In this document: positions 3,686-9,514 of the stretch, in pieces
Layout of the letters: every line of letters begins with the position of its first letter
How positions within the stretch are numbered: the first letter of the stretch is position 1
DNA from: Pyrobaculum calidifontis JCM 11548
Lineage (GTDB): Archaea > Thermoproteota > Thermoprotei > Thermoproteales > Thermoproteaceae
Assembly (NCBI RefSeq): GCF_000015805.1
Contig: NC_009073.1
Span: 1,890,001-1,922,000, forward strand
Length of the DNA stretch: 32,000 nucleotides
Reading direction: 5' to 3'
Notes under the pieces: generated by a model
The model's database searches: none
Told to the model about the DNA's origin: nothing
What the model saw: only the letters and a program-made list of their open reading frames with translations
Position numbers and translations under genes: made by a program

Positions 3686-3796
3686 TGGTGGGGCCGCCGG
3701 GATTTGAATTCCCGGGGTCTCCCTCCCGGGGTCACGCGGACCCGAACCGCGCTTCAGGGGGATGTGCCCTATCCTACCAGGCTAGACTACGGCCCC
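3686..3796 (-). tRNA. tRNA-Pro (anticodon CGG) with two non-canonical introns and a genomically encoded CCA
   Basis: Minus strand: GGGGCCG TA GTCT AGCCTGGTA GGAT A [GGGCACATCCCCCTGAAG] CGCGG TTCGGGT CCGCG TGACC CCGGG [AGGGAGACCCCGGGAA] TTCAAAT CCCGG CGGCCCC A CCA. All four stems pair perfectly or with G-U. Removing the 18-nt and 16-nt inserts gives a canonical 74-nt cloverleaf. Confidence 0.85.
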
Positions 3797-3813
3797 CTTG
3801 CCACCTACTTTCC

Positions 3814-3826
3814 GTTTATTTAAGTT
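3814..3826 (-). promoter_or_regulatory. TATA box for tRNA-Pro
   Basis: Minus strand CTTAAATAAA lies 19 nt upstream of tRNA position 1 (3796). Confidence 0.55.
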
Positions 3827-5593: not shown

Positions 5594-6226
5594 CTATACT
5601 TGCGCCAGAGCCCTCACTGGCGCGCCGCTGCCGCCCTTTATCTTCAACGGCAGGCCTATGAAGAGACCAGTCCTCCCAACCACGGCCCCTAGGTTCGTCA
5701 AATTTTCGTATATCAACACCTCGCGGCTCAGCAGAATTTTGTGCACTTCGAAGGGGGCGTGGTCTGGGCTTGGGGCGTCTACTCCAACGGCGTTTACCCC
5801 GAGCTTGGCCAAGTGCTCCGCCAGCTCTGGACTTATGTCGGGGTGCTCAAGCCACTTCTCGCTTCCCGCATACGCGTCGTAGCCCGTCCTTATTAGCACA
5901 GCCCAGCCGGGCCCCAGCTCCACGCCCCGCGGCAGAGACGCCTCGAAGTCCCTAAGCGTCACGGCCCCTCTCGGCGGGAGGTGGGAGAAGTCCAGGGCCA
6001 CGAATCTGGAGATGAACTTGGCCGGGTCTATCTGGTCCACCGTCTTGGCGCCTGGGACAAAGTGCGCGGGGGAGTCCACGTGCGTGGCCACGTGCTCTGG
6101 GGCAAAGAGGACGTTGGAGTAGTAGCCGTGCACGTCGTATTTACTCCACTGCAGGAGAGCCGGCCTTGGATAGCCCGGGAACACCGGCGTGTCTGGACCC
6201 AGGTACTGTGTCAAATCTATGTACAT
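5594..6226 (-). CDS. Cyclase-family protein / kynurenine-formamidase-like metal hydrolase
   Basis: 210 aa with the H-x-x-T-H-x-D-x-P-x-H type motif (EHVATHVDSPAHF) typical of the putative cyclase family. Confidence 0.65.
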   Translation of the reverse strand: MYIDLTQYLGPDTPVFPGYPRPALLQWSKYDVHGYYSNVLFAPEHVATHVDSPAHFVPGAKTVDQIDPAKFISRFVALDFSHLPPRGAVTLRDFEASLPRGVELGPGWAVLIRTGYDAYAGSEKWLEHPDISPELAEHLAKLGVNAVGVDAPSPDHAPFEVHKILLSREVLIYENLTNLGAVVGRTGLFIGLPLKIKGGSGAPVRALAQV

Positions 6227-6245
6227 GGGAAGTAGAACTTTTCCA

Positions 6246-6254
6246 TATTTAAAT
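6246..6254 (-). promoter_or_regulatory. TATA box of the cyclase-family gene
   Basis: Minus strand ATTTAAATA lies 19 nt upstream of ATG 6226. Confidence 0.5.
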
Positions 6255-6306
6255 TATAAGTGTATTACCACGTCACTGTTATAACTATGTACCATTGTAG
6301 AGACAA

Positions 6307-6443
6307 CCCACGGCCTTCAGCCGCCCCCGGGCCCACTCCCCGGGCCTCCCCCGGGGGGCGCGGGGATAAGCCGGCGGCGCTGGACGGGTTCGCCCCGCCT
6401 GGCGCTGTCGGCGAAATCGGCGCCGACGGCTGAGGGCCGTGGG
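6307..6443 (+). ncRNA. Unidentified, highly GC-rich structured element (candidate novel ncRNA; MITE not excluded); strand tentative
   Basis: A 137-nt G/C-dominated island sits between AT-rich flanks. Its ends form a 17-bp helix (CCCACGGCCTTCAGCCG / CGGCTGAGGGCCGTGGG). Internal hairpins include GGG-TTCG-CCC (6386-6395) and TCGGCG-AAATCGG-CGCCGA (6408-6426). The one non-Watson-Crick pair in the closing helix is G-U on the + strand and C-A on the - strand. A TATA-like TTATAACT lies 20 nt upstream and a T-rich tract lies downstream on +. Confidence 0.4.
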
Positions 6444-6460
6444 TCTTCTCTCTTCACTGT

Positions 6461-6467
6461 TTTAAAG
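6461..6467 (+). promoter_or_regulatory. TATA box of the GT2 gene at 6486
   Basis: TTTAAAG lies 18 nt upstream of GTG 6486. Confidence 0.5.
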
Positions 6468-6485
6468 TGGCACAAGTGGATAGGC

Positions 6486-7511
6486 GTGATTGAGCTGGCA
6501 TACGTAGTGTCTAACGTATTGGGCGGGCTGTACCTCGCCATTCTGCTAATCGGCCTCGGCCAGCGGGCTAGGCCGGGCGGGGGACCCGAGGTTGAGAACT
6601 ACCTCGTGGTGGTGGTTACGGTTGGAGACTGGCGCGTGTTGCCCGCCTTGCGGGAGACGGTAGGGCGTCTAGAGGAGCTGGGGCTGAGGTACGTGGTCGT
6701 CTCGTCTAGGCCTCTGCCCTTCTCCAACGTGCTCGTCGTCCCGAGGGAGGAGGACGGCTCTAAGTACCGGGCTATTAGGTGGTTTGTTAAAAACTACGCC
6801 CGCGGCGACGTTTGGTACATATTCCTCGACGACGACAGCTACCCGCTCGACAGGCAGTTTCTGCGGGACATCGCCTACTACGGCGCTAGGGGGTACGTGG
6901 CGGGCAACGGGGTGCTCGTGCCTAGGCCGGGGAAGTCTAGACTCGCCTACGCCCTAGACTGGGTGAGGCATTTCGACGACTTGACTAGGCAGAGGCTGGC
7001 CCTCCGCCTCCTGAAGAGACCCATCTTCGGCCTCCACGGCGAGCTGCTAATCGTGAGGGGAGACGTGCTCAGAGAGATCTGGCCCTCCATGGGCGACACA
7101 GTCACAGAGGACTTCAGATTCGCCATGGAGCTACTCCGCCGCGGCTACAAAGTCTTCCAAACCTCCACCAGGGTGTCTGTGAAGAGCCCGAACTCCCTCC
7201 GCGACTTCCTCCGCCAGAGGGCCAGGTGGGCCAACTCCCTCCACGAGGCGCTCCGCTACGGCAACGCGGCCGCCGTCGCGGCCGTGGCCCTCTCAGCCGC
7301 CCTCTGGGCCACCGCCCCCCTGTGGGTCCTCTACGGGCCCAACCTAGCGGCAGTGGTGACTGGCATATACGCCGGCGTCTACGTGTACGGCAGCCTCAAG
7401 GCGAGGAGGTACATAGTTGACGTGTGGCTGGCCTCGCTCCTAGAACTCATAGGCCTACTAGCCGGCGCCGTAAGGAGGACACGCCACTTCTATGTAATAG
7501 ACAAGACCTAA
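6486..7511 (+). CDS. Family-2 glycosyltransferase with membrane-spanning N- and C-termini (processive, cellulose-synthase-like type)
   Basis: 341 aa. DxD motif in YIFLDDDSYP, Q-R-x-R-W motif (LRQRARWAN), and hydrophobic helices at both ends. Confidence 0.7.
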   Translation: MIELAYVVSNVLGGLYLAILLIGLGQRARPGGGPEVENYLVVVVTVGDWRVLPALRETVGRLEELGLRYVVVSSRPLPFSNVLVVPREEDGSKYRAIRWFVKNYARGDVWYIFLDDDSYPLDRQFLRDIAYYGARGYVAGNGVLVPRPGKSRLAYALDWVRHFDDLTRQRLALRLLKRPIFGLHGELLIVRGDVLREIWPSMGDTVTEDFRFAMELLRRGYKVFQTSTRVSVKSPNSLRDFLRQRARWANSLHEALRYGNAAAVAAVALSAALWATAPLWVLYGPNLAAVVTGIYAGVYVYGSLKARRYIVDVWLASLLELIGLLAGAVRRTRHFYVIDKT

Positions 7512-7726
7512 AGCCGCTATAGTACCATTTAAGACGGCACCATGCGTAGAAGGCCGTGGCATGGGATAGCAAGGGCGTAGGCTAATTTCAGCTATCCACA
7601 CATTTCTCTCTTGCAGACGACGAGTCTCTTGCAACGGGGAAGGTTTCTCTACGCCTACACTCTCATCGTACGTAATATTGCGTACTTCTTGCACCGATGC
7701 CTGAGGAGGACGTTGATAAATATGGA

Positions 7727-7834
7727 GGCCGCCGCCGGGACTCCCAGGGGTTTCCCCTTTTGAACCCGGGTCAACGGGACCACAACCCGCCCTTAGGCGC
7801 ATGGGCGTATCCTAGCCGCTAGACTACGGCGGCC
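7727..7834 (-). tRNA. tRNA-His (anticodon GUG) with two non-canonical introns, encoded G-1 and C73
   Basis: Minus strand: G(-1) GCCGCCG TA GTCT AGCGGCTA GGAT A [CGCCCATGCGCCTAAGG] GCGGG TTGTGGT CCCGT TGAC CCGGG TTCAAA[AGGGGAAACCCCTGGGAG]T CCCGG CGGCGGC C. The G-1:C73 pair is the histidine identity element. No CCA is encoded. Confidence 0.85.
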
Positions 7835-7853
7835 GGGGGTTTCTGAGCTAAAG

Positions 7854-7866
7854 TTTAAAAATTTTT
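7854..7866 (-). promoter_or_regulatory. TATA box for tRNA-His
   Basis: Minus strand AAAAATTTTTAAA; the TTTTTAAA core lies 19 nt upstream of G-1 (7834). Confidence 0.55.
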
Positions 7867-7994
7867 AGGGGGCCCCTGTGTGCAGAAGAGCGCGTGTATT
7901 TGCTTGTGTGCGTAATCTCTGCCTCTCTGAGTCATTGGCTGCTGGCGGCGTTCTTCAGCTGACAGTGTTGTAGACAAGTCGCTTAGGTGGCGCC

Positions 7995-8297
7995 TTAGGC
8001 CGTTTGGCGCTCTTGTTGCGTTGTCGTGGGCCCTCGGTATCCGTGGATTGGGTAGCGTCGGTAGTACAGTATCTGTTTTGTCTGATTGAGGTAGGCGATT
8101 AGCTGGTCTACTGTGGCCGCTGGCACGTAGTATATGTGCCGCTCGTCTGGCGATACGCCGAACATGGCGGTCTCGTTTGGCTTTAGGATGCCTAGCTCTT
8201 TCAGCTTGTCTATTATCTTAGTGGGGTGCGCCTGGCCATCTATGTCTATTTCCACGGCGTTTTTTGTGTCTATGTCTACTAACTTTAGCCGGGTCAT
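7995..8297 (-). CDS. Hypothetical 100-aa soluble protein, translationally coupled to nuoD
   Basis: ATG 8297-8295 overlaps the nuoD TGA 8296-8294 (ATGA). The protein is MTRLKLVDIDTKNAVEIDIDGQAHPTKIIDKLKELG..., with no Cys and no motif I recognise. The longer ORF-track version (to 8669) is the same frame read through nuoD. Confidence 0.55.
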   Translation of the reverse strand: MTRLKLVDIDTKNAVEIDIDGQAHPTKIIDKLKELGILKPNETAMFGVSPDERHIYYVPAATVDQLIAYLNQTKQILYYRRYPIHGYRGPTTTQQERQTA

Positions 8298-9514
8298 CTG
8301 TCCGCCTCCGGCGGGAAGTAGCCGAATGACATGTATATGGCCGGCATGTCGGCTAGCCTCTGGTCCTTCATGGCCTCTATCATTGCCCGCAGATTGCGCC
8401 AGCTGGGGGTCACGAATCGCATTCTGTAGAGCCGCTGAGTCCCCGTGGCAAATATGTGGACGTAGGCGAGGCCCCTGGAGGCCTCCGCCATGCCCATGTG
8501 CTCCCCTGGCTCGGGGTAGAGATAGGTGTAGACTCCGAGTATTCCGGACATGCCCTCTCGCCTGTGTTCTGGGTTTTTGACGAGGAGGGCTTGGTCGACT
8601 ACGTCTCCCTCTGGGAGGCTTCTCAGGGCTTGTCTGACGAGGTCTATGGAGGCGTAGACCTCGCGCCACCTGGCCATGACTCTTGCAAGGGCGTCGCCGG
8701 CCTTCTCCACCACTGGCTCAAAATCTATTTCTCGGTAGGCGTCGTAGGGGTAGGCGGACCGCACGTCGAAGTCTATGCCGGACCCTCTGGCGAATGGCCC
8801 CACTGCCCCGACCTCGGCCGCCGCCTTGGCGTCTAAGACTCCGACGCCCTCCAGCCTGGCCTTGGTCACTGGGTTGTCTAAGAACAGCGTCTTGAAGTCG
8901 CCGAGCTTCTTCTCCACCTTGGCCAAGAGCCTCTCCACCAGCGCGATGTGCTCTGGCTTGAAGTCCCGCCTCACGCCGCCCGGCGCCGGGTACGATATAG
9001 TGGTGCGGGCCCCTGTTATCTTGGCGAATACCTCGGCGAATAGGTCCTGTAGGGCGAAGCCCCACATGAAGGCCGTGGAGTGGCCGAGGAATATGCCCAG
9101 GAGGGCTAGGTCGTAGAGGTGTGTCCTTATCCGGGAGAGCTCCGCCATGATTAAGCGGAGGTACTGCGCCCTGGGAGGCGGCTCTAGGCCTAGGGCCTTC
9201 TCGAGCGCCAATACCGCCGGGTACGTTATATTCATGCTGTCCATTATTGAGGCCTTCTCCACGAGAGGTATCAACGTCCAGTAGGGCCTGTTCTCGGCCA
9301 GCTTCTCCACGCCGCGGTGGACAAAGCCCGGGTCTGGGACTACGTCCACTATTATGTCCCCGTCCAACACTAGGAACAGCCTCATGTGGCCAGAGCCTGG
9401 GTGCTGTGGGCCTACCACTAGCACAAGGCCGCGGCGGCCCCTCAAGAGCTCCTCCTCCCTCTCTACGAAGAAGGTGTCCCCGAACTTGGCCGTGAACGGC
9501 CACTCACTCTGCAT
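8294..9514 (-). CDS. nuoD: Complex-I subunit D (49-kDa / NuoD)
   Basis: 406 aa. GPQHPGSGHMRLFLVLDGDIIVDVVPDPGFVHRGVEKLAE and the downstream RIRTHL / TGAR regions match NuoD. There is no fused NuoC domain. Confidence 0.9.
   Translation of the reverse strand: MQSEWPFTAKFGDTFFVEREEELLRGRRGLVLVVGPQHPGSGHMRLFLVLDGDIIVDVVPDPGFVHRGVEKLAENRPYWTLIPLVEKASIMDSMNITYPAVLALEKALGLEPPPRAQYLRLIMAELSRIRTHLYDLALLGIFLGHSTAFMWGFALQDLFAEVFAKITGARTTISYPAPGGVRRDFKPEHIALVERLLAKVEKKLGDFKTLFLDNPVTKARLEGVGVLDAKAAAEVGAVGPFARGSGIDFDVRSAYPYDAYREIDFEPVVEKAGDALARVMARWREVYASIDLVRQALRSLPEGDVVDQALLVKNPEHRREGMSGILGVYTYLYPEPGEHMGMAEASRGLAYVHIFATGTQRLYRMRFVTPSWRNLRAMIEAMKDQRLADMPAIYMSFGYFPPEADR

Follow-up and report, generated by a model that had tools for sequence, protein, structure and literature searches.

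Between two divergently transcribed genes of Pyrobaculum calidifontis JCM 11548, at positions 6307-6443 of the 32,000-nucleotide (nt) stretch of contig NC_009073.1 analysed here (positions 1,890,001 to 1,922,000 of the forward strand; hereafter the window), lies an island made almost entirely of G and C runs whose two ends can pair with each other. The original prediction, made from the letters alone, left it as either a non-coding RNA (ncRNA) of no recognised family or a miniature inverted-repeat transposable element (MITE), and the locus thus raises the question of which of the two it is and, if an RNA, what that RNA might do. Comparative sequence analysis leads us to conclude that positions 6303-6452 (plus strand) very probably constitute a stand-alone gene for a structured ncRNA of ~145 nt. 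The first half of the prediction stood, in that the element is single-copy, sits at an orthologous position, shows compensatory changes, has a promoter and matches nothing in Rfam, while the MITE is rejected. The RNA is a new orphan family, absent from Rfam 15 and from the literature that we searched, within a known kind, the stand-alone structured small RNA genes of archaea. Taken jointly with a mechanism in which it would serve as the core of a ribonucleoprotein (RNP), this identity is in our estimate slightly more probable than the contrary.

Conservation, structure and promoter of the predicted RNA

Homologues were gathered by BLAST on loci fetched via the flanking proteins, by further look-ups and by two pattern scans. 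The first BLAST matches lay in P. neutrophilum (locus L007 of our set, 2516-2658), P. ferrireducens (L008, 3745-3925) and a P. aerophilum-like contig (L009, 199-346); further homologues came from a P. arsenaticum-like contig (L026), strains WP30 (L024) and KC_015 (L017), several metagenome-assembled genomes (MAGs) and 39 metagenome contigs. A search with nhmmer gave 54 hits that reduce to 41 distinct sequences, exactly one per locus, and all 41 derive from Pyrobaculum genomes, MAGs named Pyrobaculum or hot-spring metagenome contigs; contigs from hot springs also carry the locus in identical form. A covariance model trained on ten homologues scores true copies at 99-151 bits and found no other match in ~400 kb of Pyrobaculum DNA including the whole window, with a background of at most 13.9 bits (30 kb of related DNA, filters off). 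In the window it matches 6302-6445 (plus strand) at 124.4 bits, and the nhmmer match spans 6303-6445; neither BLAST nor the covariance model found a second copy in the 32 kb, and a scan of viral contigs with the conserved core pattern returned 0 hits. Copy number and synteny, two of the checks proposed alongside the original prediction, come out as one copy per locus at an orthologous position in several species.

The reach of these searches differs. The pattern scan of a genome collection returned 15 loci, comprising two Pyrobaculum genomes and 13 chance matches in high-GC actinobacteria, and it missed P. neutrophilum and P. ferrireducens, although loci L007 and L008 fit the pattern exactly; absence from that scan is thus uninformative on distribution. 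The synteny-based search found no copy in L010 or in L069 and L070, the more distant GT2-bearing contigs, a negative that carries no information since synteny is lost there.

The plus strand of the element folds at -112.8 kcal/mol, compared with -80.9 +/- 4.1 kcal/mol for dinucleotide shuffles (z = -7.8; none of 200 shuffles was as good), and the minus strand folds less well (z = -6.3). A consensus structure, obtained with RNAalifold on ten sequences and then by model-guided alignment of all 41, is a three-way junction of arms P1, P2 and P3 (Table 1). The terminal helix had been described as 17 base pairs (bp) extendable by A6306-T6444, and it indeed consists of 18 contiguous bp (6306-6323 with 6427-6444) in which T6316/G6434 is, as stated, the only wobble; P1 stacks on the 4-bp base of P2 to give a terminal clamp of ~22 bp. 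Among the internal hairpins first proposed, GGG-UUCG-CCC (6386-6395) is real and forms the tip of P3, whereas TCGGCG/CGCCGA (6408-6426) can form here but is not conserved, its U-A pair being present in 4/41 sequences and its G-C closing pair in 20/41; its 5' half belongs to the 3' strand of P3. Across the 41 homologues the mean folding energy is -102 kcal/mol at 37 °C and -18 kcal/mol at 95 °C, with P1 kept.

Covariation supports this structure. Standard pairs fill 96.4% of the paired alignment cells over the whole structure, against 38-56% when partners are slid, and 18 of the 50 pairs are changed on both sides against a shuffled mean of 8.5, values that were reached by 0/500 shuffles. The compensatory changes by which the terminal helix was to be judged are present in nine of the 18 P1 pairs, and the distal hairpin of P2, which varies in length, has double changes in six of seven pairs. 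Covariation is free in the middle of P1 and at the tip of P2, and P3 exchanges G.U and G-C at alignment columns 128/156 and 133/151. Nearly invariant in sequence are the outer 7 bp of P1, the P2 internal loop (CGGGCCCAC at 6328-6336 here; family consensus GGGCCUAAC), almost all of P3, in which 97.7% of cells are paired and wobbles recur at fixed columns (U.G at 132/152 in 41/41, G.U at 127/157 in 37/41), and all of the junction strand J3/1, whose GGCGCCGACGG is invariant in 41/41 sequences. The alignment holds 233 G.U/U.G cells and only 34 A.C/C.A cells; because of this asymmetry the plus strand is the RNA, and the original argument, by which the G-U pair pointed to the plus strand, holds family-wide. 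In P. ferrireducens, an insertion of ~33 nt (L008, ~3790-3825) extends the P2 tip as an extra hairpin and leaves the core unchanged.

The promoter moves with this structure. The TATA-like box at 6279-6286, TTATAACT, had been proposed as the element's own promoter; it is real and is conserved as ACTGTTATAA in orthologues. In the alignment of homologues it reads ACTGTTA(T/A)(A/T)AA (ACTGTTAWWAA), a few sequences showing minor variants, at a constant spacing of ~21 nt before CCCACG; a clade with another gene context keeps it, and so does the locus that carries the gene in inverted orientation. For Thermoproteus, a spacing of 26 nt from TATA box to start site has been reported (PMC4731332), in agreement with the one seen here. 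The pyrimidine-rich tail noted downstream is likewise present, and in most homologues P1 is succeeded by tracts of the type UCUUCUCU(U/C)UU. A palindrome, TAATAY-N4-6-GTATTA, stands directly before the promoter in ~20 loci and occurs nowhere else in them (L024, 3993-4008; L028, 4927-4942; L035, 675-690; and ~17 others); the window retains only its proximal half-site, and the clade with the other context is without it. The position of this operator-like palindrome suggests regulated transcription and a dedicated transcription factor.

The element occupies part of a 260-nt intergenic region, which has a leaderless cyclase gene (5594-6226, minus strand, PF04199) on one side and on the other a GT2 glycosyltransferase gene (6486-7511) with 74% identity to its P. 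neutrophilum counterpart. Its G+C content is 81% (6307-6443), against 32% in the flank at 6227-6302, 44% in that at 6445-6485 and a window mean of 59%, so that the description of a GC-rich island between AT-rich promoter regions was apt. The minus-strand open reading frame (ORF) across it is not the only one, as had been stated, since a second (6260-6433, plus strand, 57 amino acids (aa)) is present. Homologues measure 143-153 nt and differ from each other by 1-nt indels, so that neither overlapping ORF can be coding. Gene calls encroach on the RNA in relatives as well: in P. ferrireducens (CP003098; L008, 3534-3963) two hypothetical ORFs of 48 and 100 aa overlie it, probably as spurious calls over GC-rich RNA, and in P. 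neutrophilum (CP001014; L007, 2626-2658) the 3' end of an amino-acid permease call overlaps it by ~30 nt. The element thus has its own promoter, a structure supported by covariation, a strand-specific signature and a non-coding character, the generic attributes of a stand-alone ncRNA gene.

Table 1. Features of the predicted RNA gene and its immediate flanks, in window positions.
Feature	Positions	Strand	Remarks
Operator-like half-site GTATTAC	6262-6268	+	Upstream of the promoter; conserved in two alignments; in many relatives part of the palindrome TAATAY-N4-6-GTATTA
Archaeal promoter ACTGTTATAA	6275-6284	+	TATA box TTATAA at 6279-6284; ~25 nt upstream of the predicted RNA 5' end
Predicted ncRNA transcript	6303-6452	+	~145-150 nt; 5' end predicted at ACAAC 6303-6306, 3' end predicted in the pyrimidine tract
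P1, 5' strand of terminal helix	6306-6323	+	18 bp in the minimum-energy fold; 9/18 pairs doubly compensated; 96.9% of cells paired
P2 arm	6324-6365	+	Basal helix CCCC/GGGG (6324-6327 with 6362-6365), asymmetric internal loop, distal hairpin; from consensus folds
J2/3 linker AUAA	6366-6369	+	AUAA in most homologues; ACAA in P. ferrireducens, GAU in L027, deleted in P. neutrophilum
P3 arm	6370-6412	+	18 bp; bulged A 6384; variable apical loop 6389-6393; G.U wobbles at fixed positions
J3/1 junction strand (G)AAAUCGGCGCCGA	6413-6426	+	Perfect 10-nt palindrome UCGGCGCCGA at 6417-6426
P1, 3' strand of terminal helix	6427-6444	+	Same basis as the 5' strand
Pyrimidine/T-rich tail CTTCTCTCTTCACTGTTTT	6445-6463	+	Probable termination region; 3' part overlaps the TATA box of the GT2 gene

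Possible modes of action

What such an RNA would do is a question to which the pattern of conservation speaks. Somewhat under half of our belief about mechanism goes to an RNA acting in trans as the core of a specific ribonucleoprotein. The GC-rich P1 would then be an end-clamp against thermal unfolding at ~90-100 °C and against exonucleases, as proposed for helix 1 of the signal recognition particle (SRP) RNA; the recognition surface would consist of P3, J2/3, J3/1 and the P2 internal loop; through its palindrome, J3/1 may hold two RNA molecules together as a dimer; and the operator palindrome found upstream in many species would place transcription under regulation. The near-invariant core, with its fixed G.U pairs in P3 and its J3/1 palindrome, suggests a specific protein-bound particle and possibly a self-dimerising RNA. 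Between species the RNA core is 73-83% identical, against 64-73% nucleotide identity for the adjacent GT2 gene. We favour a stable RNP core because the constraint exceeds what a base-pairing seed would need and is of the kind typical of sequence- and shape-specific recognition.

Several points weigh against this explanation, identity and mechanism taken together. The RNA core is only moderately better conserved than that neighbouring protein gene, and no gene neighbourhood is conserved that hints at a function. Inspection, in the case of the K-turn of two family alignments, found no K-turn consensus, Sm-site consensus, or C/D or ACA box; loop E and GNRA/receptor motifs were likewise absent on inspection. 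For the palindrome, a small hairpin within one molecule is just as conceivable, as is a role as the site where a protein or a target binds, and a long-range pairing between GGCC of the P2 loop and GGCGCC of J3/1, which RNAalifold proposes from the 41 sequences, is 90% compatible and shows no covariation. Expression, exact ends and abundance, finally, are predicted only from the conservation of promoter and terminator.

A smaller share, which makes it an improbable alternative, goes to a function that would reside in the RNA's own tertiary or quaternary structure, either a homodimer or oligomer held by UCGGCGCCGA or a ligand-binding or catalytic RNA with a pocket at the junction. It draws on the invariant 10-nt palindrome, which is predicted to be open in the junction at 95 °C: the self-duplex of UCGGCGCCGA is worth -21.5 kcal/mol at 37 °C and -5.75 kcal/mol at 95 °C, and the 3-bp intramolecular hairpin melts at the higher temperature. 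Because the mini-hairpin is unstable at 95 °C while the duplex keeps its -5.75 kcal/mol, homodimerisation is a concrete possibility. Moreover, covariation in the helices around conserved junction strands and a conserved internal loop is a pattern known from riboswitch or ribozyme cores, and a preprint describes large bacterial orphan RNAs as RNA-only homo-oligomers (bioRxiv 10.1101/2024.12.08.627333). Covariation cannot, however, separate a dimer from a mini-hairpin or a protein site, no ribozyme or riboswitch family matches, and no associated gene set hints at a ligand.

Equally improbable in our view is a trans-acting regulatory small RNA (sRNA) that works by base-pairing, with AAAUCGGCGCCGA of J3/1, GGGCCUAAC of the P2 loop or the pyrimidine-rich 3' tail as a seed against mRNAs and the rest of the body serving only for stability. 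A stand-alone gene with an operator-like palindrome in many species, suggestive of conditional expression, would suit such a regulator, and the invariant stretches are formally unpaired. On the other hand, ~90 nt are nearly invariant, including the helical P3 with its fixed G.U pairs, which is far beyond the need of a seed. Complements of J3/1 and of the P2 loop occur in the window at chance level, bar one palindrome core inside a coding region, and since J3/1 is palindromic any 'target' would resemble the RNA itself.

A bolder proposition is that this RNA opens a new functional class among the RNAs of archaea, as either the RNA of a housekeeping RNP or an RNA-only homodimer held by UCGGCGCCGA, specific to Pyrobaculum and its relatives. 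We regard this as rather doubtful; were it true, the RNA would have a biochemical role so far assigned to no archaeal RNA.

Other identities for the element

Other identities for the element can be weighed against the stand-alone RNA gene, and all fare poorly. Best placed among them, and still very unlikely, is a cis-regulatory leader or riboswitch of the downstream GT2 gene or of the divergent cyclase gene. The position of the element invites it, 40 nt upstream of GT2 on the same strand in the divergent cyclase-GT2 intergenic region. GT2 nevertheless has a TATA box of its own (ACTGTTTTAA, 6456-6465), spaced for a leaderless start. The downstream gene is convergent in most genomes, and at the P. 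neutrophilum, P. aerophilum-like, L028/L029 and clade-b (L036) loci it is both different and convergent. In one MAG (L027) the ncRNA gene is inverted with respect to both neighbours and keeps its upstream motif, a second clade carries it in an unrelated context, after a DUF2192 gene and beside a convergent ORF, and in P. ferrireducens and L027 the RNA is retained in the absence of the cyclase gene. For the cyclase gene in particular, the G.U asymmetry excludes transcription from the minus strand. A cis-acting leader or riboswitch is therefore ruled out by a promoter that moves with the element, by the inversion in L027, by the varying contexts, by the loss of the cyclase gene and by the convergence of downstream genes.

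It is very improbable, too, that the element is a diverged or fragmentary version of a known universal RNA, be it RNase P RNA of type T, SRP RNA, 5S rRNA or an intron-containing or permuted tRNA. Pyrobaculum does have aberrant RNA genes (a minimal RNase P, multi-intron tRNAs), and the outline of the three-way junction loosely recalls 5S rRNA. Against this, Rfam 15 yielded zero matches in the whole 32-kb window at the gathering threshold and zero at E<=10 in 6200-6520, the segment around the element, and at E<=10 the five orthologous loci gave nothing relevant, only a chance hit to ftsZ-DE with E=4.3. Annotations of Pyrobaculum already include SRP RNA, RNase P RNA and 5S rRNA as separate entries. 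The statement of the original prediction that the element resembles no tRNA, 5S, SRP, RNase P, C/D or H/ACA RNA is thus borne out by Rfam, by ARAGORN and by inspection of motifs.

The individual families were considered in turn. With the type T RNase P model, which was presented as a new Rfam search model (PMC3579882), genuine members reach 117-169 bits; assuming that this model is included in Rfam 15, type T RNase P has no match at E<=10 in the element or the five orthologous loci, and inspection of the transcribed strand found no sequence resembling CR-I or CR-V. ARAGORN calls no tRNA in the element, which has neither a T-loop nor an anticodon arm, its UUCG loop being a variable tip of 4-5 nt and not a 7-nt T-loop; nor does P1, a continuous helix without conserved 3-nt bulges, contain a bulge-helix-bulge. 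As to C/D box RNAs, RUGAUGA is absent, the CUGA at 6430-6433 is part of the P1 helix and is replaced by CUGG, CCAG or UCGG in homologues, and the length is ~145 nt against ~50-70 nt. For H/ACA RNAs, no conserved ACA follows P1, where the tail is UCUUCUCU, and Pyrobac-1 (RF01722) does not match. Pyrobac-HINT, which is not in Rfam, is unrelated in sequence according to its published alignment and has a different gene context.

Nor is the RNA described in the papers we searched, namely those on Pyrobaculum sRNA sequencing, the P. oguniense catalogue, type T RNase P, permuted SRP RNA and 104 RNA motifs. The 145 RNA genes of P. oguniense are rRNAs, SRP RNA, RNase P RNA, tRNAs and C/D and H/ACA-like sRNAs only (PMC3558965), and the list leaves no unexplained entry. 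In the four-species Pyrobaculum sRNA sequencing the libraries were size-selected at 16-70 nt (PMC3388794), so that an RNA of ~145 nt would not have been captured whole. We also set aside the idea that this RNA supplies the minimal RNase P with its specificity domain in trans, since the RNA has no sequence similarity to the S-domain and no local Rfam hit. Pyrobaculum is not known to have the S-domain proteins Rpp21 and Rpp29.

We give just as little credence to an element acting at the level of DNA, such as a palindromic protein-binding site, a hairpin insulator or a terminator between the divergent genes. The island has many palindromes (GGCGCC, GCCGGC) and a promoter on either side, but 233 G.U against 34 A.C cells is a strand-asymmetric signal of selection on one transcribed strand, and a dedicated upstream promoter motif moves with the element.

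A MITE or dispersed repeat is the least credible of all: the 18-bp terminal inverted repeat does resemble those of such elements and an 11-mer of its arm recurs twice more in the window, but there is one copy per locus in ~400 kb and no second in the 32-kb window, the position is orthologous across species, no direct repeats flank the element, viral contigs gave no hit, and the supposed inverted repeat evolves by compensatory changes with G.U asymmetry, which marks constraint at the RNA level.

The 11-mer in question, GAAGGCCGTGG, occurs three times in the window, at 6308-6318 (minus strand), 7549-7559 (plus strand) and 9068-9078 (plus strand), where shuffles lead one to expect 0.05 occurrences. 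One copy falls inside the gene for the NADH dehydrogenase 49-kDa subunit. Around neither extra copy does the resemblance to the element extend any further, and the recurrence is probably compositional or codon-driven chance. The suggestion that it traces a repeat family fails, as neither the covariance model nor BLAST finds a second copy of the element and a repeat search gave nothing beyond short matches due to chance. The 11-mer had also been placed next to tRNA-His; the tRNA-His gene exists, but it lies on the minus strand at ~7727-7833, ~170 nt from the 11-mer.

That gene, for tRNA-His(GUG), has two non-canonical introns, one of 17 nt (CGCCCATGCGCCTAAGG) between the D-arm and the anticodon stem and one of 18 nt (AGGGGAAACCCCTGGGAG) in the T-loop. 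Because of them both ARAGORN and Rfam miss the gene, and ARAGORN calls it once both segments are removed by hand. The ~200-nt non-coding stretch from the GT2 stop codon to tRNA-His (7512-7725) is absent in P. neutrophilum, where the gap is 57 nt; its minus strand holds cGATGAG ... CTGA, which could be a C/D-box-like sRNA and has no Rfam hit at the gathering threshold. In the distant GT2-bearing Thermoproteota contig L069, a TnpB/Cas12f-like gene (OrfB_IS605) stands beside Prim-Pol and MazE-like genes at 7590-8816, a region that is probably an integrated mobile element unrelated to the ncRNA.

Significance and comparison with known systems

The ncRNA set of Pyrobaculum is among the most thoroughly catalogued in the Crenarchaeota and includes a minimal RNase P, atypical pseudouridine guides and multi-intron tRNAs. 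Conservation, a promoter of its own and covariation nonetheless predict a stable RNA of ~145 nt that was overlooked, probably owing to the selection of fragments below 70 nt in sequencing libraries and to spurious ORF calls over the RNA. With the covariance model, the annotation of Pyrobaculum genomes and MAGs can be mended at once. Where the junction core of an orphan RNA is invariant, the RNA has often proved to be a protein-bound machine, a ligand sensor or a self-assembling RNA. The present RNA is small, is predicted to be extremely thermostable and can be made in vitro, which makes it attractive for pull-downs and structure determination.

Within its own genus, the RNA invites comparison with two small hairpin families. 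Pyrobac-1 (RF01722; Weinberg et al. 2010, PMC2864571) is likewise a GC-rich, Pyrobaculum-restricted and presumably trans-acting small RNA that was found by comparative genomics and has no consistent gene association. It is, however, a single hairpin of ~60 nt with an unrelated sequence (ACUGCCGGGACUACGCCGG...) and with several copies per genome (eight representatives in four genomes), whereas the RNA described here is ~145 nt long, forms a three-way junction and is single-copy. Pyrobac-HINT is a hairpin of ~65 nt (UGUGUGAACCCCGCGGCAGGGGG...) immediately upstream of a HINT gene, and the present RNA differs from it in sequence and in gene context.

Two stable RNAs of the Thermoproteaceae and other hyperthermophiles share features of its general design. 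The type T RNase P RNA (Chan, Brown and Lowe 2012, PMC3579882), also present in Pyrobaculum, is similarly lineage-restricted, has a G+C content of 74-78%, is encoded by a stand-alone gene for a stable RNA, has a terminal P1 clamp and was long missed by standard models; the present RNA is set apart from it by having neither an Rfam hit at E<=10 nor sequence like CR-I or CR-V. Helix 1 of hyperthermophile SRP RNAs, and the circularised SRP RNA of Thermoproteus (Plagens et al. 2015, PMC4731332), offer the same device of a long GC-rich helix that joins the 5' and 3' ends, proposed in SRP RNA to prevent unfolding at extreme temperature, and the Thermoproteus gene also has its TATA box ~26 nt upstream of the start. 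Our RNA differs in that it contains no SRP motifs and no bulge-helix-bulge processing site and is about half the size.

Further afield, the orphan RNAs raiA, OLE, ROOL and GOLLD share with the Pyrobaculum RNA a stand-alone gene, a highly structured fold supported by covariation and conserved junction nucleotides. Those RNAs, however, belong to bacteria or phages, are for the most part considerably longer and have no sequence relationship to ours; Rfam includes all of these classes, and none matches. Some large bacterial orphan RNAs form RNA-only homo-oligomers, as reported in the preprint cited above (bioRxiv 10.1101/2024.12.08.627333), and by analogy the invariant palindrome of the present RNA would allow assemblies of the same type.

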